Source: a virus
Lineage: Duplodnaviria; Caudoviricetes
Direction: 5' to 3' (one strand)
DNA: 52,579 bases
Virus record (IMG/VR): IMGVR_UViG_3300009786_000016
Span: 1-52,579 of that record
The notes under the pieces are model-generated. The model worked only from the letters and a program-made list of their open reading frames with translations. It was not told the DNA's origin and ran no database searches. Position numbers and translations under genes: made by a program. Positions within the stretch are counted from its first letter, which is position 1. Each line of letters starts with the position of its first letter. Shown here piece by piece: positions 15,625 to 33,413 of the stretch.

Positions 15625-15625
15625 C

Positions 15626-16413: not shown

Positions 16414-16431
16414 ACTTGTCTCCTTTTACCA

Positions 16432-16467
16432 ATGCAACGAGGGAGTCACGGATGACCCCCTCTGCAT
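16432..16467. promoter_or_regulatory. Intergenic hairpin (possible terminator or processing site)
   Basis: ATGCA-AC-GAGGGAGTCA-CGGA-TGACCCCCTC-TGCAT lies between two minus-strand genes. Confidence 0.4.
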
Positions 16468-16472
16468 AGTAG

Positions 16473-16730
16473 CTACGCTAATGTATACTCAGCGTACTTG
16501 TTGCCCGTGTGACTTTTAACTCGTTTGGTCTCAATATCGTTTCCCTCTGTTCGCAGTACGTTAATTACTGCGGCTAGTCGAAAACAACCACACCGATTTA
16601 AAGCCATCATAGGCGTAACAGGGATACCCTGTTTTAGCAAGTCTAAGATTATTAGCTTTTGGCTAGTATTACGTCTTGGCATAAATTCCTCTCTGAAATT
16701 ACAGGGTGAATGTGAATCCCGAATTTCCAT
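16473..16730 (-). CDS. Winged helix-turn-helix protein (true start probably MPRRNTSQ)
   Basis: SQKLIILDLLKQG.PVTPMMAL..CGCFRLAAVI..LR..G.DIET is a typical phage wHTH pattern. GAGG SD precedes the internal ATG. Confidence 0.7.
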   Translation of the reverse strand: MEIRDSHSPCNFREEFMPRRNTSQKLIILDLLKQGIPVTPMMALNRCGCFRLAAVINVLRTEGNDIETKRVKSHTGNKYAEYTLA

Positions 16731-16885
16731 ATTGTGAATACAATATCTATTGACTTTGTTCTGTGCATTATTCCACTATCTAGCATCGTATTAGTTTTCA
16801 TTATCACTCCACCTATTTGGAAAAACTTTAATAGAGTTATGTATATTCCTTTTGGCACTATAAAAATGTCAAGGAAATTACTCAC
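16652..16885 (-). CDS. Hypothetical protein
   Basis: AAGGAGG SD upstream; start overlaps the gp157 stop. Confidence 0.5.
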   Translation of the reverse strand: MSNFLDIFIVPKGIYITLLKFFQIGGVIMKTNTMLDSGIMHRTKSIDIVFTIWKFGIHIHPVISERNLCQDVILAKS

Positions 16886-17421
16886 TATGACCTCCTTATT
16901 CTTTTTACTTTGGAGATAGAAAATCCCGGAATCTTTGCCCCTTGTACGAGCACCTCACGAGCTTTCTTTTTGTCTATAGCATCTGTCATTACAACCTTTT
17001 TAAAGTCATCAGGGATTTCATCTTCGTTCATTATTACGACAGGACCCCAAGTTTCGTACAATTTGTACCTTGCAGTGTCTGTCTCATAGACTCCATTTTC
17101 GTCTCCTAGTTCTTCAACAACCATTGGAATCAATGTATTATTAAAGTATCCTTTGAGACTTTGGACAGCCTTCCTTCTTACCTTCAGCCTTAATTCTTCA
17201 CTTTTTATAGCTTCGATTTCAGCGTCAATAAGATGTTCTCGTCTACTTAACTCAAGCATAAAGTGGTCGATACCATCAACCTTTTTCCTTATTGTTTGCT
17301 TTACAGTTTCCATAGCACTCACCACTTCCGTGATGTCAGAATCATCAGTAGAATATTCAGCCTGTATTTCAAGGTCTATGTATTCTCCTAATAAGTCTTT
17401 AGTTGTCTTTTTAACAACCAT
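16885..17421 (-). CDS. Siphovirus Gp157-family protein
   Basis: Coiled coil followed by VVI.NEDEIPDDF....DKKK....L..G.KIPG, characteristic of Gp157. Confidence 0.8.
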   Translation of the reverse strand: MVVKKTTKDLLGEYIDLEIQAEYSTDDSDITEVVSAMETVKQTIRKKVDGIDHFMLELSRREHLIDAEIEAIKSEELRLKVRRKAVQSLKGYFNNTLIPMVVEELGDENGVYETDTARYKLYETWGPVVIMNEDEIPDDFKKVVMTDAIDKKKAREVLVQGAKIPGFSISKVKRIRRS

Positions 17422-17598
17422 CTAAGTGTCCTCCATCATTATGTCGTGCTTTGGTTTGGAATTTTGTTTCCTTACCTCTGTTTCGATAATGTACTCTACC
17501 TGTTTCTTTAGTGACCGTTTATCTTTTCTTGCCATTTCAGACAACAGGATTTTTGTTTTAGGGCTAACCTCAGCCTTAAGCATATGTGTCTTTACCAC
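17422..17598 (-). CDS. Ribbon-helix-helix (Arc-like) DNA-binding protein (58 aa, not in ORF track)
   Basis: GTG start with AAGGAG SD; sequence includes HMLKAEVSPKTKILLSEMARKDKRSLKKQVEYIIE. Confidence 0.6.
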   Translation of the reverse strand: MVKTHMLKAEVSPKTKILLSEMARKDKRSLKKQVEYIIETEVRKQNSKPKHDIMMEDT

Positions 17599-19435: not shown

Positions 19436-20018
19436 TACTAACTGGTCGAATTGCAGACATATCGGCTTCTTTAATAAGATTCTTGCCTTTAAGAAATTCT
19501 ACATAACTTTGTAGCTCTTCTTTGGCTTTAGTCTCATTCTTTACCAGTCTTGGGTACACAGTTGTATATGACTTAGAAGGGTCTTTACGACCGGGTTCTT
19601 TGTATACATAACCATATGCGTCAAAACGTGGTACTAATGGGTTACCAGCGTGATGTTGCTCTAAGTATAACACTAGGTTATCTATAGAAGCACCATCGGC
19701 ATCTACCCAATTACCCTGTACATCAGGACCTCCTTGAAAGCCCACTACATCAAAAAGCCAATAAAGTCTTTTCAATAAAGTACAAGTTTTGATGTTACCG
19801 TTGCTCTCCTTATCATAGGAGCCTGCAATCTTCATTTCCACAGGATACTGTGAACCTTCAATTTGCAGGGTGATACTAATAAAGACATCAGCCCAATCGA
19901 ACATATCGGCTTTGTCTTCATAGCCCATTACAGCTACGGGTAGAAAACCCAAGAACTTACTTCCACCATCGGAAGCTTTGTCTAGGTCTTCTGGACGAAA
20001 ACGCATTGTATTACTCAT
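19392..20018 (-). CDS. Putative single-stranded DNA-binding protein
   Basis: Lies between a Sak4-like ATPase and the primase-helicase. Beta-rich aromatic core with a flexible tail ending in Phe. The call rests on context. Confidence 0.45.
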   Translation of the reverse strand: MSNTMRFRPEDLDKASDGGSKFLGFLPVAVMGYEDKADMFDWADVFISITLQIEGSQYPVEMKIAGSYDKESNGNIKTCTLLKRLYWLFDVVGFQGGPDVQGNWVDADGASIDNLVLYLEQHHAGNPLVPRFDAYGYVYKEPGRKDPSKSYTTVYPRLVKNETKAKEELQSYVEFLKGKNLIKEADMSAIRPVSNGVSNTVAGEPTRF

Positions 20019-20022
20019 AGCG

Positions 20023-20901
20023 TTATTTCTCCTCTTTGTAGTTTAGGATTTCATCACGTACTACGTTAAAGTCAAACAGTAACTTCTTTTGATTCAGAGG
20101 CTTGAGTCGAGACCCAATTACTCTTTCATCATATGCTTCAAAAGAAACATAGTAGTTACCATCGTCCTTACTCGCAGTGGCATAACCTATTACATCTGCT
20201 TTGGCGGCAAGTGAATACCCAAGTCCTCTCGGGAGCTCAGGTCCAAGTTGTGCCTTACCATCTGTAACAACTGTTGATTTTGCGTGTGAAAGCAATACTA
20301 GATTGCCTCCTTTTTGTTTAATCAGCATTTGGAATCGTTTAATTACATCAATGTTCTTACGTCTGGCTTTTCCCCAGTCGGCTCCCCATTGACCCTCTCC
20401 CATTGCTGATATTCCCAGTTCCTCACAAACAGTGTATTCTATCCATTCGTTTACTTGACCTATCGTATCAATTACAATAGTGTCATATGGTAGACTATCC
20501 CACTCGTCAGCGAGCCAATTAAACACTTCGATTAACGAATATGCTTCTATTGGTTCACCCTTGTTCCCCCCAGCACGTGCTTTAAAACCACGTTCTAATG
20601 GAGGAACAATTTCGTTTTGTGCCTTACCACCCTTAGTTACCTGTTTCTTGTCTTTAAGAACAGGTCTTGTAGGGGGGTTTAAGGAAGCGATAGTTACTGC
20701 GTTTACTCCATCTACGAAATCAGACCCTAAGTCTGTATCTAATAGTAGGACGCCATCGTTTCCTTGTTCAGACCAGCCAGAAGCGGCTGTTGTTTTACCT
20801 GTTTTAGGCTGACCGATGAGTAGCCACGTTAGACCGGCGGGCATTGCCTTCCAGTCTGTCGAAACTTTCCTCACGGCTATCTTTGGTGATTGCATTTGCA
20901 T
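20023..20901 (-). CDS. AAA_24/Sak4-like recombination ATPase
   Basis: Walker A GQPKTGKT, Walker B TIVIDT, WGADW, LLSH and ADVIGY motifs. Confidence 0.8.
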   Translation of the reverse strand: MQMQSPKIAVRKVSTDWKAMPAGLTWLLIGQPKTGKTTAASGWSEQGNDGVLLLDTDLGSDFVDGVNAVTIASLNPPTRPVLKDKKQVTKGGKAQNEIVPPLERGFKARAGGNKGEPIEAYSLIEVFNWLADEWDSLPYDTIVIDTIGQVNEWIEYTVCEELGISAMGEGQWGADWGKARRKNIDVIKRFQMLIKQKGGNLVLLSHAKSTVVTDGKAQLGPELPRGLGYSLAAKADVIGYATASKDDGNYYVSFEAYDERVIGSRLKPLNQKKLLFDFNVVRDEILNYKEEK

Positions 20902-21592
20902 CTCCTTTAGGTTTTGGTACTATTAATGTCCCATATTCGACCATATTAGGGCTCAGGCTAGACCAAATATAGTCATAATAGGCTAATTTAGCAATCATAT
21001 TGTATACTTGAGCTGACCCAAGTGACACTATATGTTGCGTTGCAAATACTGTATGTTTCATCGAACAAGGTGCTTCTTCTACTGCACTTGTAGGAATCCA
21101 TTCCTTTAGGTAATTGTCAGTATGTCTCGTTACTGTAGACATTTCTACTGTAGTTGCACCCATTCTTAAGTCAATAAAGAAATGACCAGTGCCTTTGGTA
21201 CGAGAAAGACCGTCCTTCCACATATCATACACCATTCTTCTAGATTCCATATCATCTGTACAGACTATCATTTTTGGCAGTACTACTGAATTATATTGGA
21301 AATTGTTTTCTGCTCTAAATTGTTGCCAATCTTCAGAATATTCCCTATGTAAATCGTCTGCCGCTTCCTTCTTTAACTTACCTGATTGATACAAAGGATA
21401 AGCTGTTGAGCTGAAATTATGGTCTTCAACTCTATCACTATCCCATCCCCAAATTGACTGCCATCCCATAACAGTTAAATTTTGGAGAAGAAATGAACCA
21501 ATCCCACCTAATCCTACTATACCTATCTCTGTTAATTTTGGAATAGGTATTAAATCCTTATTTCTAAGGAATCTTGTGCTTATTGCATCCAT
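20804..21592 (-). CDS. ThiF/MoeB-family E1-like ubiquitin-activating enzyme
   Basis: IGIVGLGGIGS nucleotide-binding loop, DSDRVEDHN, VCTDDMESR, IDLRMG, and candidate catalytic Cys in EEAPCSMK. Confidence 0.9.
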   Translation of the reverse strand: MDAISTRFLRNKDLIPIPKLTEIGIVGLGGIGSFLLQNLTVMGWQSIWGWDSDRVEDHNFSSTAYPLYQSGKLKKEAADDLHREYSEDWQQFRAENNFQYNSVVLPKMIVCTDDMESRRMVYDMWKDGLSRTKGTGHFFIDLRMGATTVEMSTVTRHTDNYLKEWIPTSAVEEAPCSMKHTVFATQHIVSLGSAQVYNMIAKLAYYDYIWSSLSPNMVEYGTLIVPKPKGDANAITKDSREESFDRLEGNARRSNVATHRSA

Positions 21593-22017
21593 TTAACGAA
21601 CTCCTTTAACATAATATGTGCTTCAGCACTGTTGCCGAACATAGCTATGTCTTTAATCTTAGTTGCTTCTTCACGTATTTTCTGAACTTTCTCATCTGCT
21701 TCGTTGCGTAAAGTGGAATTTATATAAGATGACTTACGTAAATATGATTCCCAGCCAATAAAGAAACTCTCAATGTTTATATTAGGCATATAAGAATGAC
21801 TATACTGTGGTCCACTTGACTTTAGATTATTTCTTATTAATTTTTCCATTTGACTCTGATTAATTAGCTTTATTTTCCCATCGTCTAGTCCTTCTAAACA
21901 GATTGCTTTCTCGTTCTTTGGCTCCTTTACCTTGTTCCATATATCGTTCTCTTTCCTGAGAGTTATCTCGTCAATCCTATTGCAGAAATACTTCTTTTGT
22001 GGTACTGTCATACCCAT
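21580..22017 (-). CDS. Hypothetical protein within the Ubl cluster
   Basis: 145 aa, helical; AAGGAG SD; overlaps the E1 start. Confidence 0.7.
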   Translation of the reverse strand: MGMTVPQKKYFCNRIDEITLRKENDIWNKVKEPKNEKAICLEGLDDGKIKLINQSQMEKLIRNNLKSSGPQYSHSYMPNINIESFFIGWESYLRKSSYINSTLRNEADEKVQKIREEATKIKDIAMFGNSAEAHIMLKEFVKWMQ

Positions 22018-22043
22018 ACTACACTCCTTATTTATTAAGTTAT

Positions 22044-22141
22044 GAGACTAGGGGACAAACCGGGAGAATTAACTCCCGAAAAGTGCACTCGATAGCATTG
22101 CTCTCTGGCTCTTTTTAACAAGATGTCCCCATTATAGTCTC
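22044..22141. ncRNA. Candidate structured RNA element (multi-helix junction)
   Basis: GAGACTA/TAGTCTC and GGGGACA/TGTCCCC closing helices enclose a CGGGAG/CTCCCG hairpin in non-coding DNA. Confidence 0.45.
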
Positions 22142-22321
22142 GATCGGGTCAGTGGTCAGGCATATAATCTGAAACCACCAACTTTTCTCACACCAGTATT
22201 ACAATCAAGACAAGACTTTCACTTGCCACGACTCCGCTTCCTCCCAGATTCAGAGTCCATACAGGGTTGGTGTATGTGCTTGTTTCTTGCATACTTAATT
22301 ATAATACCTATGGTGTGATAG

Positions 22322-22531
22322 TTATCCGTAATAGCCTGATGCGTAAAGATGCGGGTCTACGTCTGGGCAATTACTACGAATTTTATCAATGAACTCGTGT
22401 TCAGTGATTACTTCTTCCTCTAGCTCTTCGAAGATAGCTTCAGCATTGACCAGTTGTGCTGTCAAACTTTCGTCCCAGCACTCATTGTTATCTTCGAAGG
22501 GAGTGCTATCGCTACGTTCTGGTCGTCCTGC
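22322..22531 (-). CDS. Acidic 69-codon -1 frame extension of the JAB gene (or a separate 47-aa TTG-start ORF)
   Basis: Open frame AGRPERSDSTPFEDNNECWDESLTAQLVNAEAIFEELEEEVITEHEFIDKIRSNCPDVDPHLYASGYYG follows A AAA AAG. It contains no ATG and is closed by TGA just upstream. Confidence 0.5.
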   Translation of the reverse strand, partial: AGRPERSDSTPFEDNNECWDESLTAQLVNAEAIFEELEEEVITEHEFIDKIRSNCPDVDPHLYASGYYG

Positions 22532-23205
22532 TTTTTTGGCAAATCAGGTGTGTCGTCATAGTAACCATTGTAATATCCACCGTGTACATAACCGGGAGAT
22601 TGATTGGGAATCAAATGAAGTTGACCATTCCCTCTAACATAGTTAGTTTTAACCACCTTTTGTGCTTTTTCTATCTTCTTTGCTTCAGCGACCCACTCTT
22701 TAGGTACATCCATTTTATAATCTGACTCTACGTCACCTTCTATAAAATTAGGAAACCCAAAATGGTCTCTGTAACTAACACCTGTACAGAAAGGGTCTTT
22801 TGCTGACGCTACTACTGTCGTGAAAAAGAGTCCTTCTGGTGGTGCTTGGTCAAGAGCTGTTGATTCATCAGTTCCACTGAAAAATGCTCCCATTGTATGG
22901 TGTGAATGTATTAACCCAAGATATGCGTCCTTTAAATGTGCATTCATCTTGTATATCTGGGGCAATATCTTGCCTAATTTCTCACCATCTACTTCTGTAG
23001 CAGTTCCATCACCTAAGTCCATAGCAACAAAATGTGCTAATGAAACTTTAGATGGGAAACCGTTCTTTTCACGTTTTATGACTTGATACCAAGCAGGTCC
23101 CGACCACTCGGTATTTTTAAAACGAGTCAATAGAAAGTTGATTTTCTCCACTATCTTGTTCGGCAAGTTCACCGTAAGCGTTGGTTCTTCTTTTACGATA
23201 CTCAT
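22462..23205 (-). CDS. JAB/MPN+ (JAMM) metallopeptidase, deubiquitinase-like
   Basis: N-terminal catalytic Glu (TEWSG) and HSHHTMGAFFSGTD (HxH-x7-S-x2-D). Confidence 0.9.
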   Translation of the reverse strand: MSIVKEEPTLTVNLPNKIVEKINFLLTRFKNTEWSGPAWYQVIKREKNGFPSKVSLAHFVAMDLGDGTATEVDGEKLGKILPQIYKMNAHLKDAYLGLIHSHHTMGAFFSGTDESTALDQAPPEGLFFTTVVASAKDPFCTGVSYRDHFGFPNFIEGDVESDYKMDVPKEWVAEAKKIEKAQKVVKTNYVRGNGQLHLIPNQSPGYVHGGYYNGYYDDTPDLPKKQDDQNVAIALPSKITMSAGTKV

Positions 23206-24757
23206 TCGTTACTCCTTTATAGAGAGTTGTTAGGTCACTTTTTAATATCCTAGTTACTTCACAATACATTTTGTTGAAGTACTTCTCCATTATATCTGTG
23301 ACAGTTATGGGTAATAATGCTCTATGTATCTGCATCATTATTCCCCGAAGTTGTTCCCCATAAATCTCTCTTTTATTTATGGAAGTGTCTTGTTGTCCCT
23401 GTATTGTTAACCATTCAGCCAACATTTGTTTTGGGTCGAAAGGAAGTACACTTGCGTGAGTTGTCTCCATATTACCATACTCTCGTATAGCGTGAAGAAA
23501 ACATAGCAATCTATAAGCATTTGTCCTAAATGGTTGAGATGCTATTACAGACCTTTCAATGTATGCCCCAAGAACTTGATTAACATCGCTGTTACTCATA
23601 AATACGTTAGCTCTTGGTACCTTATCCCCTAGCTTTGTATGAGCTATTAGACCCTTAGATTTCAAAACCTGTTGTAAATCAGCATACCTTGACCGTGTAT
23701 GGTTAAAGTTCCCTAATCTATAGGTTATGTCTTCTAATACAGGAGGAATAGTAAAACAAATGTCTTGTCTACTAGAAAACAGTCCTTTTCTCCTGAAACC
23801 TGTCAATACTTCTTCAGCCACTGGATAAATGCCAATTTTTAGCGTATCTAGTGATTTGTCAAGCATTGTGTTGAGTAAAAGCCTGTATACTCTAGCCATT
23901 TTATCACAAAATCCTTTCAGAATCCTTACATCACCATCTTGTGTATCAATGGTATGGGTTAATGACTTTTTATAACCGAGATGTGCTATGAAAGCAGTCT
24001 CCCAGTCTATTTTCATACCACTAAGTATGTCTTTATTATCATCATACCAATCTGTGAAATCCCTGTAATGATTGCCTGTATTCCCTTGTCCCCTACTATG
24101 GTTGTCATAATTTATAGCTTCAGCTAATTTCCTTATCACATAGTAATCTTTAAAGAAACGAATACCGTGATGATGTTGTCCTTCTTCTTGCCAATCTCTG
24201 TGATAATAGTTAATGTCCCAATAACAATCAACTCTCGTCCAATTATTAAGAAATGACTGTGATACATTTACTAATGCTGGGATATTACTATCTGCTATTG
24301 TAGCAGACCAAGGTGCTGAAAATTGTCCCAAACAAGGTACACCATCAGGTGAAATGTGTGGGTGTAAACTTAAGGGTAAATTATTCAAATTTGAGGTTCT
24401 GTAAGGACCCGCCGGAGGTTGGTCATCACTTAGTCCCGTAGTCAAAGTTTCTCTTAAGTCGTACCAATTTTGATAACTACTGTCCCTATCTGGGATTAAT
24501 CGAACTCTACTAGGTTCAAACAAACTAAACTGTAAGGAATGTGCTTGTAAAGTCATAGGACTTCTAGCTCTTAGCTTGGGTACTCCTACCCTTGCCTTGA
24601 AACTCTTATTAACCCTATCTGGACTATGAAACTCGATTCCTTTATCAATCCAAGTAGAAAGTCTTTGGTTAGCCACAGCTCGACTAGTAGATATTTGGTT
24701 CTCTTTACTGTTTAATCGTATCCATCGTATGATTAATGCTCCTAATGATTTCTCCAT
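23117..24757 (-). CDS. E2 (UBC-fold) ubiquitin-conjugating-like protein with a long C-terminal extension
   Basis: LHPHISPDGVPCLG parallels the E2 HPN-x-G-x-CL active site (Cys codon at 24332-24334). AAGGAG SD supports the ATG at 24757 rather than 24814. Confidence 0.75.
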   Translation of the reverse strand: MEKSLGALIIRWIRLNSKENQISTSRAVANQRLSTWIDKGIEFHSPDRVNKSFKARVGVPKLRARSPMTLQAHSLQFSLFEPSRVRLIPDRDSSYQNWYDLRETLTTGLSDDQPPAGPYRTSNLNNLPLSLHPHISPDGVPCLGQFSAPWSATIADSNIPALVNVSQSFLNNWTRVDCYWDINYYHRDWQEEGQHHHGIRFFKDYYVIRKLAEAINYDNHSRGQGNTGNHYRDFTDWYDDNKDILSGMKIDWETAFIAHLGYKKSLTHTIDTQDGDVRILKGFCDKMARVYRLLLNTMLDKSLDTLKIGIYPVAEEVLTGFRRKGLFSSRQDICFTIPPVLEDITYRLGNFNHTRSRYADLQQVLKSKGLIAHTKLGDKVPRANVFMSNSDVNQVLGAYIERSVIASQPFRTNAYRLLCFLHAIREYGNMETTHASVLPFDPKQMLAEWLTIQGQQDTSINKREIYGEQLRGIMMQIHRALLPITVTDIMEKYFNKMYCEVTRILKSDLTTLYKGVTNEYRKRRTNAYGELAEQDSGENQLSIDSF

Positions 24758-24781
24758 TATTCTTGTTCTCCTTAATGAGAA

Positions 24782-24806
24782 TGGGGGCGGCTCTCCACCA
24801 CCCCCA
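24782..24806 (-). terminator. GC-rich hairpin between the Ubl and E2 genes
   Basis: Minus strand reads GGGGGTGG-TGGAGAG-CCGCCCCC followed by ATTCTC, with only a weak U-tract. Confidence 0.45.
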
Positions 24807-24823
24807 AACATCAATTTGTGGGC

Positions 24824-25024
24824 TCAGCCTGAAGTGACCTTGCTCGTAGTAAAAGAAACGAAATCTTCGTCTCTTAACTCTGAGTCAAGTGCAACTTTGT
24901 CTGAGTTCACAGTTATGGTAGCATTGTCCACTGAAATGCCTAACTGTTCAGCTATACTTGCTGGGCTGTTAGCATCTACAGTTTTGACAGTGCCGCCGAA
25001 GGTTTGTACTAGTACTTTAGCCAT
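24824..25024 (-). CDS. Ubiquitin-like (ThiS/MoaD beta-grasp) protein
   Basis: 66 aa; beta-grasp pattern KVLVQTFGG...ITVNS.....DSELRDEDFVSF; free C-terminal Gly (KVTSG); directly upstream of E2 and JAB. Confidence 0.85.
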   Translation of the reverse strand: MAKVLVQTFGGTVKTVDANSPASIAEQLGISVDNATITVNSDKVALDSELRDEDFVSFTTSKVTSG

Positions 25025-25053
25025 CTGGTCTGTTCCTTAACTGTTCGTGGTTA

Positions 25054-25440
25054 TTAAGAGCTTTTTCTTGGGCGTCCACGTTTGGGCTTTTTCTCTAGTT
25101 CCCCGAGTCTAGCCACTACCGCCTCAAAATCAAGCATTAATTCGTTAAAGCTTGTATTCATTGAGTCTATGGCAGTTTTACTCTGCCTGTCTTCATAGAA
25201 TAGCTTGTTTACTTGTTTCATTAAACTGAATGTCTTCTGTGATGTCCAAGTAGAAAAGTTTTCAGTTTTCCATCGTTCACCTGAAGCAGTTACAGGTTCC
25301 CAACACTTGTTACTTGCTGGGGGATTTGACTGTGGTGATGGGTATTTGCTTCCTTTATTACTGTACGTTTTATAGTTACGTGAACTCTGTCCAAATATCA
25401 TACGATATAGTGGACGTAACATTGATTTGATTTTTCTCAC
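25054..25440 (-). CDS. Hypothetical protein with coiled coil and C-terminal AT-hook-like motif
   Basis: Ends KPKRGRPRKSS; AAGGAG SD with GTG start. Confidence 0.6.
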   Translation of the reverse strand: MRKIKSMLRPLYRMIFGQSSRNYKTYSNKGSKYPSPQSNPPASNKCWEPVTASGERWKTENFSTWTSQKTFSLMKQVNKLFYEDRQSKTAIDSMNTSFNELMLDFEAVVARLGELEKKPKRGRPRKSS

Positions 25441-25454
25441 AATGTCTCCTTGTT

Positions 25455-25688
25455 TTATGGTTCTGGGTTATACTCTGGCTCGAAACGGTGACCTAGTACA
25501 TCAGGGTCTTCGGTGTGATTACAATCTAGGCATAAAATGCCAAGTTCGGAGTTTGCCGCCATACACTCTTCTAGCTGTGAGGCATAAGCATACTCTTCGA
25601 ACACTGTGTTATAAGAATCACATTCCGCACACTGCAACTGTGCTGGGTCACCGCCTATGGGAACCGAGTTTTTTATGAAATCAGGCAT
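25455..25688 (-). CDS. Zn-ribbon protein
   Basis: CAEC...CLDC. Confidence 0.6.
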   Translation of the reverse strand: MPDFIKNSVPIGGDPAQLQCAECDSYNTVFEEYAYASQLEECMAANSELGILCLDCNHTEDPDVLGHRFEPEYNPEP

Positions 25689-25878
25689 CTCTATTCTTGT
25701 TTAAGAACAATGCCTTTTCACGCCAATAATCAACGTCTGCTGATAATTGCTCTACCTTCTTGAGATGGTACTGAAGAAAGGTTACAAACATAACCATTCC
25801 TATCATCAGTAAAAGGTAAGAGACTAACAACATCATATCAATTAGGTCTTTATGCTCAATAAAATTGATAATATCCAA
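25681..25878 (-). CDS. Small membrane protein
   Basis: One hydrophobic helix; AAGGAG SD with TTG start. Confidence 0.55.
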   Translation of the reverse strand: MDIINFIEHKDLIDMMLLVSYLLLMIGMVMFVTFLQYHLKKVEQLSADVDYWREKALFLNKNRDA

Positions 25879-25880
25879 GG

Positions 25881-25979
25881 CTACTCTCCTTCGTCACTAC
25901 TTTGTTTAGAGTTGAGTTCATCGAGCTTGTCTTCTGCCACTCGTATCGCACTCTGTAACTCCTGAATTGTCATCTCCAT
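25881..25979 (-). CDS. Small coiled-coil peptide (32 aa, not in ORF track)
   Basis: MEMTIQELQSAIRVAEDKLDELNSKQSSDEGE with AAGGA SD. Confidence 0.5.
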   Translation of the reverse strand: MEMTIQELQSAIRVAEDKLDELNSKQSSDEGE

Positions 25980-26044
25980 TGCTTCCTTTATAGAAATGTC
26001 TAAAATGTCACAGGCATATGTGACCACGCCCTTGACGGCACCCA

Positions 26045-26170
26045 CTAGGATGCCATCCCAAGCTGTAGAAGTCTTAGCCTTCTGTAAGCCATTGCTTCTG
26101 TACTCGCTCTAACAGTGAGCAAGCTTCCACGTACTATGAAATACCACTTTGGTTTCTCTGATTTAGTCAT
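26045..26170 (-). CDS. Small protein (41 aa, not in ORF track)
   Basis: MTKSEKPKWYFIVRGSLLTVRASTEAMAYRRLRLLQLGMAS with a strong AAGGAGGT SD. Confidence 0.55.
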   Translation of the reverse strand: MTKSEKPKWYFIVRGSLLTVRASTEAMAYRRLRLLQLGMAS

Positions 26171-26205
26171 CTCTGACCTCCTTTACAGGGTTATGGATTA
26201 AATGA

Positions 26206-26713
26206 TTAGGAGTATAGAAGATTGTACCTGAGACAGTGCTGACTATTGTCAGTGTCCACTTACCTTCTGATTCGTTGTCTTATGTTTGGTTTACTGCTCT
26301 TTCGAGTCACGTATACATCTACCCTTCTACCATTACTGGCATACGACCCAAGACTCAAAGCTGTTAACTCCATTGTCTATAAGATACCATCCCCATTCAC
26401 ATAGGGTTAGGCTCTTAGGTCTCAACTGGCAAGTAGATTACTAGAAGATGTTGACTAGTTCTCCTTCTACTTTATGATGTTCCGACTATACAGACTTGTT
26501 TCTGTATTTAAACGAACGTACTATCAATCCTTGACGGTTACCCTACGACAATTATAGCCGTTTAGAGTAGTGGACACCGAGTTGTCTCCCGACATTCACT
26601 TCATCCACTTGATAGTCTATAGCCACCCGCCTGCTGTTGGCTTAAGGTGTAACTCTATAGATATACTACGCCATAATACTTTGACCGCTAAGTCGTAGTC
26701 TTATGACTCCTAA
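26206..26713 (-). ncRNA. Candidate large structured ncRNA (~510 nt)
   Basis: No ORF of 60 aa or more. Terminal helix TTAGGAGT/ACTCCTAA; four GNRA-capped hairpins on the minus strand; 9-bp long-range complement 26252-26260/26569-26577. Confidence 0.65.
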
Positions 26714-26714
26714 A

Positions 26715-26930
26715 TGTTAGAACGATAGTCGAGCACTCACTTGCCCAGCGTCCTATTTACAATAAATCTTTACGTACTGAATGACTAACAGTTATATCGC
26801 CATTAGGGCAATGCTGTTAGCCATACAGAATTAGTGCTAGGATATCTCTACCCTTTTACACAACTGAGAGTGACTCACCTGTGCAGGTTACGAACCATTC
26901 ACTAAAGTTAGTCGACTGTTCGTTACTACA
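26715..26930 (-). ncRNA. Second candidate structured RNA module (~215 nt)
   Basis: Closing helix 26721-26732/26912-26924. Internal 11-bp helix 26781-26791/26814-26824 has a G-U pair on the minus strand. Confidence 0.5.
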
Positions 26931-27040
26931 TACGCTTAAGTTTAAATATGGGATATGTTCATTGCGTACTCCACTTAATAGATACAGCCGACATAAGTCT
27001 TCTAATAACCGCTTCCTTTACGTAGGTTTGATAAAATATA

Positions 27041-27142
27041 AGCTATAGCGATGCCTGTGTGTGGCTGGCACCCAGAATGGGTACCAACGCACAGGTTTGA
27101 GCGATATCAGATGTCGTGCCAATAGGCACCTGATATCTAGCT
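27041..27142. ncRNA. Candidate three-way-junction RNA element (~100 nt)
   Basis: AGCTA/TAGCT closes two long hairpins (CCTGTGTGT/ACGCACAGG and GATATCAG/CTGATATC with inner GTGCC/GGCAC). Confidence 0.45.
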
Positions 27143-27149
27143 ACCGAGT

Positions 27150-27512
27150 TCAGTCGGAGACGGAACTGTCAGCAACTTCCATAGACAAATCGGCAACGAT
27201 TGGTTTATAGAAGTATGCCTTGGCAGACGGAAGACCGAGTTCTTTGTTCGGCTCTAACTCCATCGTCTTGGAAAGACGATAGTCAGTTTGAGCTACGAAA
27301 CAAAGTTCGGGCTTTTGTGCACCAAGGTTGCTTACAGCGTTGGCTTCGAGTAGAACAGGCAGGGTACTATCAGTATCACTAGTAGTGATGCGGATATTGT
27401 CACTGGGAATCCAGCGACCATTCCTGTCTGTTTCGTGCTCGAAGACACCGTTTATAACTGAACCACGATAGGTATTCGATACACGTATCGATATAGTCTT
27501 CGTTTTAGCCAT
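27150..27512 (-). CDS. Hypothetical protein, first gene of the early arm
   Basis: 120 aa, AAGGA SD, beta-rich with an acidic tail. Confidence 0.7.
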   Translation of the reverse strand: MAKTKTISIRVSNTYRGSVINGVFEHETDRNGRWIPSDNIRITTSDTDSTLPVLLEANAVSNLGAQKPELCFVAQTDYRLSKTMELEPNKELGLPSAKAYFYKPIVADLSMEVADSSVSD

Positions 27513-27539
27513 AGCGTAAACTGTCCTTCGTTTAGGTTA

Positions 27540-27760
27540 TTGATAATGCGTTCCAAGTTATAACTCGGATACACAGTAGCCAGCAGGGGCACTGCACCAG
27601 TAACAGTGCGTTAAGGAGCGTAGCGACTGCTTTACTCCCGTAGGGACGGGCGGGTTGTGTAGCTTGAGAGCTTTCTCAACCCGGCATCGACCCCTAGGGG
27701 GTAAAAACGCACGGGTACGGTGCAATGTATATCCCGTACTCCCACTCTACAGCAATTTTC
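27540..27760. promoter_or_regulatory. Divergent control region rich in GC hairpins and palindromes (possible origin, terminus or vRNAP promoter)
   Basis: Non-coding and GC-elevated; GCACTG/CAGTGC, CCCGT/ACGGG, CGGGTTG/CAACCCG and the palindrome CCCCTAGGGG lie between the divergent arms. Confidence 0.4.
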
Positions 27761-27981
27761 TAATGTTTTTGGATTTGCTCCTTGGAATCGGTTAGTGCTA
27801 CTACCCATTTACAAGGTATCCCTTCAAAAGCCTGTTATTACTTATTTTAAAGTTGTGAACCTAAAGTAAATGATAGCCCTTGTATATTCGATTTATTTGT
27901 TTTACATTTTTAGTAATATTTGGTTGTTATAGTACCCTTACACCATTAAGTGTACTTAACTATTTATTAAGGGGTAGTTTC

Positions 27982-28626
27982 GTGTTAGACAAATACTTAA
28001 ATAGTGATGGTGAGTTAGATTACCAGAAGCTGTGGTCAGAAGTAGGTGCCATAGGTGGCTTTGGGTACCAGCAGAGACGAGAATTGTTATATAAGGAGGT
28101 CGTAAATGCCTACAATACTAAGAAACGCAATCAGGATATTCCAGCTAGGGATAGACCTGAGTATATTGAAGTTAAGGATAGCCCTCATAAGGGTTTTTTG
28201 TTTTCTGGAGGACGTCTTCCAACTGAAGAACAGGTCGTTCTGGAAGTAAACCATCAGGGCAACCGTTCTTTTGTTATGTCTGAAGATGAATACTGTATAT
28301 ATGACGCTTTTGATTCTGATTACCTAGTAGAGGTGAAGGTGAGAAAGAAGTGGTATCCCGATTGTCTTGTACAGTATGACAAGTATGACCTAAATTTAAA
28401 AGAATCGGAGCAAGATGGTAAGGAATTCCTTTATATAGTCTCCGTAGGTGTGGATATATATGTATTTAACATTACTAAACTGAATGCAGAGAAGTACAAT
28501 TTCAAGTGGGATTGGAGAGAAATGCCAAAGAACACTGATTTTGGTGGTTCTGATGATAAAATTGTAAAATTTGTTGGATTTATAGACGTTACTAAGGCAA
28601 GTGTACACTATAACTATCAAACATAA
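27982..28626 (+). CDS. Protein with a C-terminal PD-(D/E)xK nuclease-like domain
   Basis: YDAFDSDYLVEVKVR motif. GTG at 27982 with AAGGGG SD is in frame with the listed ORF starting at 27880. Confidence 0.6.
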   Translation: MLDKYLNSDGELDYQKLWSEVGAIGGFGYQQRRELLYKEVVNAYNTKKRNQDIPARDRPEYIEVKDSPHKGFLFSGGRLPTEEQVVLEVNHQGNRSFVMSEDEYCIYDAFDSDYLVEVKVRKKWYPDCLVQYDKYDLNLKESEQDGKEFLYIVSVGVDIYVFNITKLNAEKYNFKWDWREMPKNTDFGGSDDKIVKFVGFIDVTKASVHYNYQT

Positions 28627-29398
28627 CGATATTGGGGCGGTTGAATACCCCATATACTATTCTCAAGAAGCCATTGACAAGGATATCGACTTTGATTACT
28701 GGCAGGACGCAGAAGAGGGGCAATATGCCCTAACGGATGATGGATATGTTGCAAAGATTATTAAGAAAAAGGTCTATACAGATGATATTGGGCGTGAGTC
28801 TTATTATTATAGAATGCCATTTGGGTATATTATGTGGAATCCTAAATATCCTGACAAGAAGTTCTGTGCAGGGGGACGTTCCGCTAATAATACATTTACT
28901 GGCAAGAAGTGGCTGGATGTAGCAGTAAATACAGAGCCATATAAGGCTTTAGCTATGTGGGCGGCACTCACGGAAGACAGAGATATAGCTATAGACCAAG
29001 TATTTGGTCCAGTTTCTACTGGGAAACGCCGTAAGTTAAGACGGCATATGAGAACAGAGAGTTTTAAGACTATGAAAAGAGACGAAGCACAGAAACTTTT
29101 AACCGATAGAATGATGGATGCCAATTTTTTCATTGATTTAATGAATGAAGGCATTGATATGGCTAAGGAAAAGAAAGATGTTAACTCAATCAGGGGTTTT
29201 GTTAATGATGGTATGGAGATTCACGGTATGAAAGACAAAGATACTGTGGTTACTACCGAGCGATTAGAGGCTGTACAGACCCGTAAACTGATTGATAACA
29301 TAAATCAAGAAGAAGAAAAGCTGATTGCGACCCGTAAGGTGGAGCAACCAGTAAAGGAGACAAGGGATGATGTGGATAAAAACTCTACTGGAGCCTGA
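28601..29398 (+). CDS. Putative terminase small subunit
   Basis: Upstream of TerL; basic HTH-like middle region followed by helical oligomerisation-like segments. Positional inference. Confidence 0.4.
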   Translation: MYTITIKHNDIGAVEYPIYYSQEAIDKDIDFDYWQDAEEGQYALTDDGYVAKIIKKKVYTDDIGRESYYYRMPFGYIMWNPKYPDKKFCAGGRSANNTFTGKKWLDVAVNTEPYKALAMWAALTEDRDIAIDQVFGPVSTGKRRKLRRHMRTESFKTMKRDEAQKLLTDRMMDANFFIDLMNEGIDMAKEKKDVNSIRGFVNDGMEIHGMKDKDTVVTTERLEAVQTRKLIDNINQEEEKLIATRKVEQPVKETRDDVDKNSTGA

Positions 29399-29498
29399 AC
29401 ACTTCCCAGCTTGGGAAGTATACTTACTATTTATGCTATTATTCTTTATTAGCATAACAGTTAGATTAGCTAGGATAGAAAGGAAGTTAGATAAATGA
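29367..29498 (+). CDS. Small membrane protein (43 aa, not in ORF track)
   Basis: MMWIKTLLEPEHFPAWEVYLLFMLLFFISITVRLARIERKLDK with AAGGAG SD. Confidence 0.5.
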   Translation: MMWIKTLLEPEHFPAWEVYLLFMLLFFISITVRLARIERKLDK

Positions 29499-29587
29499 TT
29501 GAACTATGTTTATTAGCCGTAGCGGTACTCGTTATTATAAATAGTGAACTCTGGGTAAAGGGGTTTTGGGACAAGAATGAAGAGTGA
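29495..29587 (+). CDS. Small membrane peptide (30 aa, not in ORF track)
   Basis: ATGA overlap with the previous ORF; MIELCLLAVAVLVIINSELWVKGFWDKNEE. Confidence 0.45.
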   Translation: MIELCLLAVAVLVIINSELWVKGFWDKNEE

Positions 29588-29759
29588 TTTAAGTAGAACT
29601 CCCCAAAATCAGCAAGTACCTTGGAGACAGGCTAGGAAAATCCTGTTCCCATATGCTGACCCTGTTGAGAAGGATAAGCAATGGATTACCGATAGAGACG
29701 ACTTATTCAAATTAAACGGAAAGGACTGGATGGTGAAGTTATGGAACAAGTTCTGGTAG
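29577..29759 (+). CDS. Hypothetical protein
   Basis: Tiles the operon up to TerL. Confidence 0.5.
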   Translation: MKSDLSRTPQNQQVPWRQARKILFPYADPVEKDKQWITDRDDLFKLNGKDWMVKLWNKFW

Positions 29760-31249
29760 TTGACGACTACGAACAACGGTACGCCGCAAAGAAAGCACTA
29801 AGGAAACTTCGTGACAATATAGGTCTTTTCGGCAAGACTATGTTCCCTACTGCCATAAACAAGGCAGTTCCCCCATTTCACCACGATATATATAAAAATT
29901 TATCAGACGGTCTTGTTAAGAGGCTTCTTATAGCCGCCCCTCGTGGAACGGCTAAAAGCACAGTGACCTCCTTGATACTGCCCCTTCATCGAGCCGCTTT
30001 CAAGCCGTCTGATAAAGACCTTTTTATAGTTATTATATCTGAGAGTCAAAGCCAGAGTATAAACTTCTTATCCCGTATTAAGCATCACTTAGTTAATTCT
30101 AAGAATTTTATAGAAATGTTTGGCGATATGGGACCAAACACTGCAAAAAGGTGGACTAACAATGACATTGTACTCGCTAATGGAACGAGGATTATTGCTG
30201 TTGGTACTGGTCAGCGTGTTCGTGGGTTTATTGAGGGTGATACTCGTCCTAATCTCATTATTGTAGATGACTATGAATCAGAGCTAAACGCCGCTACACC
30301 TGAAGCTAGGGCTAAGAACAGGAAATGGATAACAGAAGCAGTCATACCATCTCTTTCTGACGAAGGTAGGATTGTAATGATTGGTACAGTTATATCAGAA
30401 GACTGTTTCCTATATTGGGCTAAGGACTCTCCGGCTTGGAAAGTCTTATGGTTTGCTATAACGAATGACGATGGCGACAGTATATGGGTTGAAAGATTCC
30501 CTATGAGTCGTATTCACGCTATAAAAGCAGAGTTTGAGTCGGTAGGAAACCTAAATGGATTTTATCAGGAGTATATGAATGAAGCACAATCACCGGACAA
30601 TGCACCGTTTAAGCCAGAGTATATTAGATTACACCACTACCATTATAAACGTATTAATGGGCAAAATTGTCTCGTTAGGGTTATTGATGGTTCGGAAGAG
30701 CAAAAACCTGTGGAAGTCTATTGTGGCATTGACCCTGCTAGTAGTCTATCTGCTCGGTCGGACTTTTTTGTTATTGCTACTATTGCTCTTGACAATGCTG
30801 GGAATAAGTATATTGTGGATATATTCAGGGATAAAATCAATCCTGCATTCCAACCTGATAAAATTATCGAGATATATAAAAGGTATCGTCCGAAGAGGAT
30901 GAAAATTGAAACAACTGGGTATCAGGAAGCGTTACGTGCTAGTGTAAGGAAGATTATGATGGAAAAAGGAATGTATATACCCGGATTAGAGAAAGGGATT
31001 AAACCTAGGTCTAGAAAGAGTGAGAGGCTGATGAGCCTTGTAGCTCCTTTAGCTAGGGGGGAGTTCTTTTTTAGAAGCCAAGATTTAGTTCCACAGCAAG
31101 AGTTTCTATCTTATCCAAAAGGAAAGCACGATGATTGCCTAGATGCTATATATTATGCACTAGATGGAGCTAAACAATGTCGTGTAAAAGATTTTAACCC
31201 AGATATGCCAAAAAAGAAGAGAAAAGTTCTTGACTGGCTCACACAATAA
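29741..31249 (+). CDS. terL: Terminase large subunit
   Basis: Walker A APRGTAKST, Walker B LIIVDD, coupling motif IGT, and RNase H-fold nuclease motifs GIDPA and HDDCLDA. Confidence 0.95.
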   Translation: MEQVLVVDDYEQRYAAKKALRKLRDNIGLFGKTMFPTAINKAVPPFHHDIYKNLSDGLVKRLLIAAPRGTAKSTVTSLILPLHRAAFKPSDKDLFIVIISESQSQSINFLSRIKHHLVNSKNFIEMFGDMGPNTAKRWTNNDIVLANGTRIIAVGTGQRVRGFIEGDTRPNLIIVDDYESELNAATPEARAKNRKWITEAVIPSLSDEGRIVMIGTVISEDCFLYWAKDSPAWKVLWFAITNDDGDSIWVERFPMSRIHAIKAEFESVGNLNGFYQEYMNEAQSPDNAPFKPEYIRLHHYHYKRINGQNCLVRVIDGSEEQKPVEVYCGIDPASSLSARSDFFVIATIALDNAGNKYIVDIFRDKINPAFQPDKIIEIYKRYRPKRMKIETTGYQEALRASVRKIMMEKGMYIPGLEKGIKPRSRKSERLMSLVAPLARGEFFFRSQDLVPQQEFLSYPKGKHDDCLDAIYYALDGAKQCRVKDFNPDMPKKKRKVLDWLTQ

Positions 31250-31265
31250 GCTGTAAGTTCCGAAG

Positions 31266-33413
31266 ATGGCGTACGTAGAGAAAGAAACAGATGTTTCTCC
31301 TACAATGGTTGAGGACACCCAGAAGATTTGGAAGTCCTATTCAGAAAAACGAGATACTTGGGCACAACACGCTCAGGAAGATTCCGAGTTTCGATTGGGG
31401 AGACAGTGGACAGCAGAACAAACAAGAATCCTACTTGAGAGGGGTCAAGCACCTCTTGTAGTTAACCGTATCCACCCTGCTGTAGAAGCCGCAAAGGCTA
31501 TGCTAACAACAGGGAGACCCCAATTCCGAGTATCCCCCAGAGAAGACAGTGACAACCAAGTTGCACAAGTCTTTAATGGACTACTGGAATATATGTGGTA
31601 CATCTCCGACGGGACTCAGGCACTCCGCAACTGCATAGATGACTACTATACTATGGGTATGGGGACTATGATGGTTTATATTGACCCCTTGAAAGATTAT
31701 GGTAGAGGAGAGGTCTGCGTAAGAGATGTAGACCCATTAGATGTTTATATAGACCCTAACTCTAGGGACCGCTTATGTGATGACGCAGAGAACATTGTTA
31801 TCTCTAGGCTCTTCACTAAAGAACAAGCAATGTCTATGTATCCTATGTATGAGGATGCAATCAAAAATGCCCAGAGCGATTTACATACAGATAGACCAAC
31901 AACATCAAGAGTTGATACTAAAGGGGTAATATTCCCTGAAGATACAGCTACTAAAACTGATGCAAGTTGGGGCGAGAACTCCGAATATATCAGAGGTTAC
32001 GAGCGTTACTACAAGATATGGGTTAAGAGATTTCACGTAAAAAATAATTTAGATGGTAAGGAAGAAGTCCTTTTAGCTGAGGATATGCCAGAATTCCTAG
32101 AAAGACCTGCTATTAGTGTAAATGGTCAGATAATCTCTGACCCGAAGAAAGCTAGTGGTATTATACAACAGGTACAGGAAGAATGGCAAAAAGCGGCACA
32201 AGAAGCCCAGATGCAAGAGCAGGACGCTCCTCCACCGCCAGTAATAGAAAAACTGACATATCAGGATTTAGTAGAACAAGATATTATCGAGACCGTGTCG
32301 GTACCTGTACAACGGATAAAGATGTGTGTAATAATGGGTGATTCCTACTTATACTCTCGTATCCTTCCTATTGACCATTATCCCATCGTGTTCTTTATGA
32401 ACATTCACAATCGAACGCCCTACCCAGTGAGCGACGTACGAATGGTCAAAGATATGCAGGAATATATAAACAAGACACGGTCTCTGATAATAGCACACGC
32501 TACTACTAGCACAAATACAAAGATTTTAATACCGTCTGGTTCGGTAGATATGCAAGATTTTGAACAAAGATGGGCACAACCCGGTGTTGCCATTGAGGTA
32601 GATATGGATAATGGGGCTCCACAGCCAATACAACCAACTCCATTGCCTAATTCTTTGTATCAAAATGAGCAAATGGCTAAGCAGGATATTGACCATCAAC
32701 TAGGATTGTATGAAATGATGCAAGGTAATTCACAAGCCGCACCAGATACATATAAAGCTACAGTCGCACTTGATGAATTTGGTCAACGAAAGATAAAGTC
32801 CAAGTTACAGGATATAGAGACGGGGCTAGTTAGAATGGCTAAATGTGCTATTCCGCTTATGCAACAACTATATCAAGCCGAGAAGGTTGTTAGACTAGTA
32901 CAACCTAATAATTCGTTAAGTGAATACGCTATCAACAAGAAAATGTACGACGACAAGACAGGCGTTACAAATGTAATGAACGACATATCAAGAGGTACTT
33001 ATGATGTTGTTGTTGTTACTGGTAGTACGCTACCGACTAACAGATTTGCTCAACTAGAAATGTATATGGATGCTTATGAAAAAGGTATTATTGACAAAAC
33101 TGAAGTTCTTAAAAAGACAGAAGTCTTCGATGTGGAAGGTGTTCTTCAAAGGACAGACACTGTGGGACAGCTTCAGGCTCAAACTAAACAAATGGAAGAG
33201 CAGATTAAAGAATTAGAAGGCGATTTGCAGACAAGAGAACGTGAAAACTATCACTTGAAACAGAAAGCTGAATTAGAAAAATTCAAAGCAGACCTCGACA
33301 AAACTTCAACCCAGTCTAAAATGTCTGGCAAGTTGTTCGAGAAACGCCTTGATGATGCACTAGGACAAGTAAAGGCGGGGGTCAAAGAAGAGGCTTCCCG
33401 TGAGTCCAATTAA
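31266..33413 (+). CDS. Portal protein (P22-like, with C-terminal barrel coiled coil)
   Basis: GRQW...RGQAPLVVNRIHP, DPLDVYIDPNS and KDMQEYINK motifs; follows TerL. Confidence 0.9.
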   Translation: MAYVEKETDVSPTMVEDTQKIWKSYSEKRDTWAQHAQEDSEFRLGRQWTAEQTRILLERGQAPLVVNRIHPAVEAAKAMLTTGRPQFRVSPREDSDNQVAQVFNGLLEYMWYISDGTQALRNCIDDYYTMGMGTMMVYIDPLKDYGRGEVCVRDVDPLDVYIDPNSRDRLCDDAENIVISRLFTKEQAMSMYPMYEDAIKNAQSDLHTDRPTTSRVDTKGVIFPEDTATKTDASWGENSEYIRGYERYYKIWVKRFHVKNNLDGKEEVLLAEDMPEFLERPAISVNGQIISDPKKASGIIQQVQEEWQKAAQEAQMQEQDAPPPPVIEKLTYQDLVEQDIIETVSVPVQRIKMCVIMGDSYLYSRILPIDHYPIVFFMNIHNRTPYPVSDVRMVKDMQEYINKTRSLIIAHATTSTNTKILIPSGSVDMQDFEQRWAQPGVAIEVDMDNGAPQPIQPTPLPNSLYQNEQMAKQDIDHQLGLYEMMQGNSQAAPDTYKATVALDEFGQRKIKSKLQDIETGLVRMAKCAIPLMQQLYQAEKVVRLVQPNNSLSEYAINKKMYDDKTGVTNVMNDISRGTYDVVVVTGSTLPTNRFAQLEMYMDAYEKGIIDKTEVLKKTEVFDVEGVLQRTDTVGQLQAQTKQMEEQIKELEGDLQTRERENYHLKQKAELEKFKADLDKTSTQSKMSGKLFEKRLDDALGQVKAGVKEEASRESN

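Follow-up and report, generated by a model that had tools for sequence, protein, structure and literature searches.

A large structured RNA encoded in the early operon of an uncultured marine phage

An ORF-free gap in the leftward operon

The window analysed here is a complete virus record of 52,579 nt (CheckV completeness 100%), with a plus-strand block starting at 27880, which encodes the large terminase, the portal and an SU10-type capsid protein, and a minus-strand block at 14561-27512, in which small ORFs without a known family are followed by a primase-helicase and other replication genes. A search with the capsid protein returned four records at 24-28% identity, and cultured phages were all distant. 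No tRNA or tmRNA gene was found by ARAGORN in the 52,579-nt genome. The stretch described as ORF-poor in the original prediction is real and larger than was claimed, no credible ORF being present at 26171-27149, a gap of 979 nt. The ORFs flanking the RNA are complete, each with its own stop, ribosome-binding site and start, and no terminator-like site adjoining the RNA was found. The RNA and the minus-strand genes discussed here are as follows.

27150-27512, minus strand: upstream gene of 120 aa, without a known family, which leads the leftward operon in the window's lineage
26206-26713, minus strand: whole RNA module of 508 nt, from the 5' strand to the 3' strand of helix P1
26045-26170, minus strand: downstream gene of 41 aa, with its own ribosome-binding site, which adjoins the RNA in some lineages only
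24824-25024, minus strand: 66-aa protein of ThiS/MoaD size, in a possible ubiquitin-like conjugation set
23117-24814, minus strand: 565-aa protein without a family, in the same possible set
22462-23205, minus strand: JAB-domain protein, in the same possible set
20804-21592, minus strand: ThiF-type E1, in the same possible set

Several observations concern other parts of the window. The possible ubiquitin-like conjugation set spans 20804-25024 on the minus strand and includes the 66-aa protein, which we take to resemble ThiS/MoaD. Between the 120-aa gene and the RNA, a second conserved element at 27010-27100 (minus strand) is common only to the related contigs L002 (4433-4488) and L003 (3219-3275); it consists of a long hairpin (CCUGUGCG...CACACAGG) followed by an invariant UAUUUUAUCAAACCUACGUAAAGGA, which occurs once in the window, it shows low metatranscriptome depth, and its role might be that of a promoter or of a site for processing or regulation. 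At 27556-27879, the spacer that separates the divergent operons is conserved at the DNA level in L002, L003, L004 and L005, with 72-77% identity over ~560 nt, gene included, and contains a terminator-like hairpin on the minus strand at 27708-27724. Elsewhere in the genome, a 2,932-aa ORF at 3352-12150 and a 469-aa ORF at 3-1412 had no Pfam match (Pfam scan only), and a 648-aa ORF at 1405-3351 matched neither Pfam nor PHROG.

Relatives, covariation and fold of the RNA

Using the 120-aa gene as bait, four viral contigs with a gap at the equivalent place were obtained, and their alignment revealed islands of conservation and compensating changes in two hairpins. The most conserved island (26289-26312) was then used as a DNA pattern to search contigs. 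In its strict form the pattern retrieved seven stretches in viral contigs and 11 in metagenome contigs, 10 of the latter belonging to the family, and in its relaxed form 32 stretches, 13 of which are recognised by the family profile over near-full length. After removal of duplicates the final set comprised 13 distinct full-length sequences and one truncated at the 5' end. The 13 full-length relatives measure 478-531 nt, represent about six lineages at only 60-90% identity and are bounded by helix P1; all relatives come from marine viral or metagenome contigs. Searched against the window with nhmmer, the family profile had a sole match at 26713-26209 (E 2e-101), corresponding to a single copy.

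Searches further afield gave little. A distant-mode blastn search of 26100-27200 against 50,697 phage records returned no match, no relatives were found via the 565-aa gene, and ten loci of more distant phages fetched via a 248-aa divergent gene (L031-L040) had no nhmmer match, the ORF map of one of them (L035) showing an early operon without an ORF-free gap. Contigs of prokaryote genomes (185,579 species) contained no strict-motif match and two relaxed ones (L072 and L073), which were judged to be chance as the similarity is confined to the surroundings of the motif and, in the case of L072, falls within a short spacer on a contig of high GC. Also set aside were L013, where a second motif (TATTTTATCAAACCTACGT) gave one additional match by chance within coding sequence of high GC, and L022, which was obtained in the metagenome scan and bears no similarity to the family. 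In group-B phages a second ORF-free gap of ~400 nt (L007, 526-925) lies ~0.7 kb upstream of the RNA copy.

The position of the RNA in the operon shifts between lineages. In the window, L002 and L003 the order is the 120-aa gene, the RNA, then F0, F4, F5, F6, F7 and F8, with the RNA between F2 and F0; in L018 the order is F0, F4, F5, F6, RNA, F7, F8; and in group B a different gene set surrounds the RNA. In L027, the RNA is 91% identical to that of the window, the flanks are unrelated on both sides, and similarity stops at P1. This shifting position and the unrelated flanks indicate that the RNA is a self-contained module rather than the leader of one particular gene, and its occurrence at different places of the early operon in different lineages makes action in trans likely.

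No conserved ORF explains the region, since every frame contains at least three stops in 13 of 13 sequences (range 3-20 per frame) and the longest open stretches on the sense strand, 21-56 codons, are not shared. The view that the RNA belongs to no assignable known family agrees with the Rfam search, which gave no gathering-score match in the window and none within the RNA at E <= 10 (25900-27950, Rfam 15). Neither the ROOL nor the GOLLD covariance model matched the whole window, 25900-27950 or the loci of seven relatives, and RNase P RNA, tmRNA, 6S RNA, OLE, raiA, HEARO and phi29 pRNA, all of which are presumably included in Rfam 15, had no model match at E <= 10 in the region. At E <= 1, the seven relatives' loci yielded a sole row, a sub-threshold PyrR match in L027 (E 0.068) that overlaps only the first ~73 nt of the RNA together with upstream flank and was taken as chance; a sub-threshold 7SK match at 27649-27849 (E 0.054) lies outside the RNA and is probably also due to chance. 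A group I or group II intron was rejected on the grounds that Rfam gave no match, the flanking ORFs are complete and the flanks differ between lineages. A likeness to the sarcin-ricin loop, or to the regions conserved in RNase P, was likewise considered, and no model match supports it. Full-text searching turned up no description of the RNA in the literature, and nothing relevant to it was found in the Minerva preprint. Four 18-letter motif strings were absent from the six files covered of the Fremin 2023 supplement (three were not searchable), whose candidate structured RNAs have a mean length of 67 nt.

Covariation was counted on a MAFFT alignment of the 13 sequences, made from sequence only and blind to structure, for 92 model pairs and against 500 shuffles. 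Cells were paired at 82.6% versus 66.9 +/- 0.9% in the shuffles, pairs changed on both sides numbered 55 versus 39.1, and the covariation score was 0.478 versus 0.198, none of the 500 shuffles reaching the observed value in any of these counts, a control that overstates independence because the 13 sequences all derive from a single group of marine phages that are related. With the partners slid by 1-3 columns the covariation score was at most 0.147, and a 9-sequence alignment agreed with the 13-sequence result. On the same alignment, RNAalifold, used free of the model, predicted 64 pairs, 46 of them with compensatory change, and recovered P2, P3, P4, P5, P5a, P5c, P5e, P5f, P5h, P6 and P6a. 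Covariation among homologues from viruses and metagenomes is therefore well above that of the shuffled and slid controls. Columns of P4c (32.6%), P5.1 (59.3%) and P5a (60-62%) are poorly paired in the sequence-only alignment; these helices need register shifts of 1-3 nt, which for helices of at most 5 bp satisfy many decoys too. Over distinct helix versions, G-U pairs outnumber A-C 124 to 11, and the folded strand is therefore the minus strand of the window. Folding energy bears out this minus-strand reading, with z = -3.48 on the minus strand (0/100 dinucleotide shuffles as good) and z = -2.15 on the plus strand (2/100).

The model, built from reading the alignments and from a scan of all column pairs, comprises about 20 helices, with the terminal helix P1 closing a three-way junction, where P1, the extended 5' hairpin P1a and P2 meet, and a five-way junction, from which P2, P3, P4, P5 and P6 radiate. 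Its parts are as follows.

26706-26713, minus strand: P1 5' strand, UUAGGAGU, pairing with 26206-26213
26668-26705, minus strand: P1a, the 5' hairpin, extended in 13/13 sequences
26662-26667, minus strand: P2 5' strand, in long-range pairing with 26211-26216
26617-26660, minus strand: P3 domain, with P3 (26655-26660/26617-26622), P3a (26645-26649/26624-26628) and a loop ending in conserved AAG(G)C
26520-26616, minus strand: P4 domain, with P4 (26609-26616/26520-26527), the GGGA hairpin (26583-26594), an inner hairpin and the mini-hairpin CCGUCAAGG (26529-26537)
26511-26517, minus strand: P5 5' strand, pairing with 26270-26276 to close the central domain, preceded by invariant UACGU (26516-26520)
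26488-26507, minus strand: P5.1 hairpin, AUACAGA/UCUGUAU
26315-26480, minus strand: inner multi-helix junction inside P5, closed by P5g (26476-26480/26315-26319)
26432-26471, minus strand: P5a, in the inner junction
26391-26406, minus strand: P5c with GUGA loop, in the inner junction, 96.2% paired
26351-26378, minus strand: P5d/P5e with conserved loop UAACA, in the inner junction
26328-26341, minus strand: P5f with GUAA loop, in the inner junction, 100% paired
26289-26312, minus strand: most conserved stretch, ACGUGAC-UC-GAAA-GA-GCAGUAAAC, including the GAAA hairpin P5h (26297-26306), with invariant columns in alignments A3 and A4
26216-26268, minus strand: P6 domain, with P6 (26262-26268/26216-26222), the inner helix P6a and an apical hairpin that varies in size
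26206-26213, minus strand: P1 3' strand, ACUCCUAA, the last base of which (26206) is the adapter-marked 3' end

The predicted pairing of the ends is that of a true helix, P1, which occurs in nine sequence versions including the window's own (UUGGGUGU/ACACCCAA, UUGGGUGC/GCACCCAA, AAUGAUGU/GCAUCAUU and UUGAGAG/CUCUCAA among others) and forms 8/8 pairs in eight sequences and 7/8 in the other five (n = 13); the boundaries proposed for the RNA, 26206-26713, thus match a covarying terminal helix. In P2, columns are 90.8% paired and four of six model pairs are changed on both sides, RNAalifold predicting this helix too. The same holds for four of six pairs in P3 (100% paired), three of five in P5 (100% paired, extended to 7 bp by RNAalifold) and three of six in P6 (96.2% paired). 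The CTATCAA/TTGATAG helix of the original prediction corresponds to P4 and is 100% paired in 13/13 sequences, with seven of eight pairs changed on both sides. Fully paired decoy placements were found in 0/104 cases for P4 and 4/86 for P3, as compared with 13/13 for the real long helices. Among the smaller helices, P3a has six distinct paired versions, P5g is paired in 13/13 (ACAUC/GAUGU, AUGUC/GACAU, CUUUC/GAAAG), P6a varies as UCAC/GUGA, UCGC/GCGA and GACC/GGUC, and P5h is 100% paired within the invariant ACGUGAC-hairpin(GAAA)-GCANUAAAC stretch that follows the inner junction.

All four hairpins expected to carry GNRA loops lie at their predicted minus-strand coordinates and recur in relatives with compensating changes, affecting both sides of five of six pairs in the GUGA hairpin (26391-26406) and of four of four counted pairs in the GUAA hairpin, and turning CUC/GAG into CCC/GGG in the GAAA hairpin. 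The GGGA hairpin is kept, after a 2-nt register shift only, in lineages other than group B, where the loop is CGAC, and L003, where it is UUGGAU. The predicted ATACAGA/TCTGTAT pairing (P5.1) is kept in 9/13 sequences (in full in seven, with 6/7 pairs in two) but not in the four group-B sequences, which form 4-6 of the seven pairs. Two proposals did not survive comparison with the relatives: the 9-bp long-range match suggested as a pseudoknot, complete in the window (9/9), drops to 7/9 in L027, whose RNA is 91% identical, and to at most 6/9 at aligned positions in the other 11, and the TGAGAC/GTCTCA helix is not conserved and no better than decoy level. A kissing pair between the P5a and P5e loops (GUU with AAC), noted by hand reading, was also discarded; it is absent from the window's lineage and lacks covariation because both sides are conserved. 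Some lineages have extra hairpins, in the P4 domain (L048, L053) or between P5a and P5b (L006, L007, L008, L044), the stems of which differ in sequence yet are paired (CUGG...CCAG versus ACCUG...CAGGU; CUAACAC/GGUGUUGG versus GGCGC/GUGCC); such inserted hairpins are typical peripheral elements tolerated by a folded core.

The apical loop of P1a is a palindrome of 4-6 nt in 11/13 sequences and in six of seven distinct loops (UGUACA, GUUAAC, GUAC, UGCA, GGCC, UAGCUA), and is without a palindrome in the window's own copy and in L027. L018 and L071 differ at four loop positions and both loops are palindromic. The chance of at least six palindromic loops out of seven is P = 0.011 by shuffling of loop letters and 5e-5 with random letters, both figures ignoring relatedness. 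A palindromic loop that differs in sequence from lineage to lineage is what a kissing-loop homodimer or oligomer would be expected to look like.

Expression and transcript ends

Near-identical sequence was present in 20 of the 21 metatranscriptome runs among those listed, from 16 studies. Four runs were mapped on 21000-33000 of the window as assembled contigs, for which depth is one figure per contig.

26215-26703: RNA contig of run X1, depth 265; flanking contigs among those listed, 2.1-6.6
26254-26635: RNA contig of run X2, depth 403; flanking contigs among those listed, 2.3-17.6
26272-26697: RNA contig of run X3, depth 295; flanking contigs among those listed, 2.1-9.7
26231-26673: RNA contig of run X4, depth 5.7; flanking contigs among those listed, 2
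26206-26703, minus strand: abundant RNA species, from seawater metatranscriptome contigs and adapter junctions

In three of the four runs the RNA reached a depth of 265-403 versus 2-18 for flanking phage contigs among those listed, an excess in contig depth of ~15 to 130-fold over these flanking messages, and a contig at 26750-26900, directly upstream in the same transcription unit, had a depth of 3. Sequencing adapters abut 26206 and 26703 in run X2, and the ends of the molecule are therefore pointed to there. The RNA is thus transcribed with the leftward early operon of the phage and accumulates as a discrete and very abundant species over just the RNA stretch, with ends near 26703 and 26206, the contigs giving no more than hints of strand, true ends and level. 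The generic marks of a structured ncRNA are all present, namely compensatory pairs across homologues, the lack of a conserved frame and presence as a discrete RNA species, the last of these being seen in the contigs, with strand and exact ends only hinted at. No joints or circular forms were seen in contigs.

The adapter-marked 5' end at 26703 is 3 nt further in than the P1 5' strand and belongs to the outer stem of P1a, so that the abundant species may lack half of P1. A simple view in which P1 is retained in the mature fold does not agree with this; P1 may serve as a stem for processing of the precursor, or else the cut at 26703 may be a secondary one.

Further observations were made on the same contigs. 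A T>C variant at 26253, in the P6 domain, occurs in the RNA contigs of X2 and X4 (124/237 depth in X2) and shows strain diversity within samples. In X2 and X3, from different studies, a contig covers exactly 27149-27555 with adapters at both ends (depth 17.6 and 9.7), and looks like a discrete 407-nt species carrying the 120-aa gene and ending one base past its stop codon.

Interpretation and comparison with known systems

It is confirmed that the minus strand at 26206-26713 encodes a real, compactly folded RNA of ~500 nt whose family is absent from Rfam, and we hold it almost certain that this structured RNA is genuine, functional and representative of a new family. The original proposal of a new class among the large ornate phage RNAs is fair, all the tests by which it could have failed having gone its way, and only the pseudoknot and one long-range helix have to be removed from it. 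That the RNA acts in trans is, in our judgement, highly probable. Our best guess, which we hold at roughly even odds, is a stable trans-acting architectural RNA akin to ROOL and GOLLD, possibly self-associating. The RNA would be cut out of the polycistronic transcript, with the covarying P1 helix probably joining both ends for processing, and would be an architectural RNA like ROOL and GOLLD, working in trans by virtue of its shape in three dimensions; it may associate with itself, the P1a apical loop being self-complementary in most lineages, and, as the host is taken over, would act either as a particle of RNA or at the core of a ribonucleoprotein. Whether self-association is part of how the RNA works is a point on which we lean slightly towards doubt.

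Bacterial 6S RNA binds RNA polymerase and CsrB binds CsrA, and the phage RNA might similarly be a decoy, a sponge or a ribonucleoprotein subunit that sequesters or scaffolds a host or phage protein at takeover, self-assembly being non-essential. Early, abundant expression would suit this, as would the absence of a palindromic loop from the window's copy, and the invariant unpaired junction nucleotides (UACGU, ACGUGAC, UAAAC, GGUAAG, AAG(G)C and the UAACA loop) are possible contacts; however, none of the protein genes stays next to the RNA at a constant position from lineage to lineage, repeated binding motifs were not observed, and Rfam gives nothing like 6S RNA or another known decoy, which leaves this explanation at perhaps one chance in four. 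A new ribozyme, excising itself from the operon transcript or acting on host RNA, is considerably less probable. The size, the multi-junction architecture, the GNRA loops and the highly conserved junction nucleotides are typical of large ribozymes, and precise ends (26703, 26206) occur within a longer transcript, but host RNases explain these ends equally well, the contigs contain no joints or circular forms, and models of self-cleaving ribozymes, group I/II introns and RNase P gave no match.

We consider it improbable that the RNA is a cis-acting element of the early operon, i.e. a leader, processing hub or translational regulator of its neighbours: it does lie within a polycistronic unit with no terminator-like site adjoining, and in the window and group B the gene that follows immediately has a strong ribosome-binding site, yet the neighbours vary between lineages, the contig depth of the RNA exceeds that of flanking messages ~15 to 130-fold, and 500 nt with about 20 helices is far beyond known leaders. 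Least probable by far is an element acting at the DNA level, such as an origin of replication, a site for packaging or a miniature transposon bounded by terminal inverted repeats. Such an element would account for the 8-bp terminal inverted repeats and for a module found at different places in related genomes; the repeats, however, differ in sequence between lineages and include G-U pairs, the excess of G-U over A-C (124 versus 11) has meaning only in the RNA of one strand, each genome contains one copy, and the RNA is in large excess in RNA libraries.

The reading as an architectural RNA of the ROOL/GOLLD kind has a bolder form, which we regard as rather unlikely: the RNA would be the founding member of a new class of open-ocean ornate phage RNAs, forming an RNA-only homodimer or larger particle by means of the palindromic kissing loop or constituting a new ribozyme, and would be the dominant transcript of a widespread group of uncultured marine phages. 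If so, the ROOL/GOLLD phenomenon, known from gut and lake prophages, would reach lytic phages of the ocean as well, where the fold is unrelated, and if the self-complementary loop mediates assembly, RNA-only quaternary structures would be supported as a general phage strategy. Relative expression in seawater metatranscriptomes is very high (depth from three runs, sequence presence from 16 studies), and the RNA marks an abundant group of uncultured marine phages whose early takeover programme seems to rely on RNA rather than protein. At ~500 nt it suits cryo-EM, and the 13 diverged natural variants can guide modelling and mutagenesis.

Among known systems, ROOL was found by cryo-EM to form RNA-only cages held by kissing loops and A-minor contacts (bioRxiv 10.1101/2024.12.08.627333). 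Like ROOL, the present RNA is phage-encoded, in the range of ~500-650 nt and very abundant, with many helices and multi-way junctions. In contrast, it has no covariance-model match to ROOL and another helix layout, and it occurs in marine phages of lytic type, whereas ROOL is found in Firmicutes prophages or rumen samples. GOLLD is likewise a large phage RNA that accumulates during infection and combines a conserved core with variable peripheral hairpins, and some members come from marine metagenomes; it differs in its length of ~800 nt, its frequent location beside tRNAs, the lack of a model match here, and conservation of only the 3' half, as opposed to the whole 500 nt in the present family. 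ROOL and GOLLD are often, not obligatorily, beside tRNA genes, of which this genome has none, and both form an RNA-only homo-oligomeric cage, of which the only hint here would be the palindromes in six of seven distinct P1a loops. These palindromes recall the intermolecular kissing loops reported for ROOL, GOLLD and OLE.

Vibriophage ICP1, a lytic phage without tRNA genes, produces as its most abundant phage transcript an RNA of ~800 nt from an ORF-less stretch (PMC7567579). The likeness lies in an ORF-less, highly abundant transcript in a lytic phage without tRNA genes; the two differ in that no sequence match was obtained (1.1 kb of the window compared by blastn with 50,697 phage records) and in that the ICP1 transcript, which is without a published structure, lies beside lysis genes and not in an early operon. 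The present RNA also differs from phi29 pRNA in several respects. Both are early, abundant phage RNAs in which the 5' and 3' ends pair, and pRNA oligomerises via loop-loop pairs covarying from one phage to another. However, pRNA measures ~120-174 nt and, in protein-primed phages, assembles into a ring on the portal through two distinct complementary loops, whereas the window phage has an ordinary large terminase and portal, and its RNA has no Rfam match. Retroviral dimerisation-initiation hairpins have palindromic kissing loops, and P1a resembles them in its apical loop of ~7 nt with 4-6 self-complementary nt, variable between lineages yet palindromic; this analogy applies to one hairpin only, and the window's copy is without the palindrome. 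The RNA does not belong to the ROOL, GOLLD or ICP1-transcript families, given the lack of model matches, a different arrangement of helices and the absence of tRNAs in the vicinity. To our knowledge, large, elaborately folded RNAs of unknown function are rare and make up no more than a handful of classes (OLE, GOLLD, ROOL, raiA and HEARO), each of them being structurally unprecedented, and the RNA described here adds a further class with an unrelated architecture.
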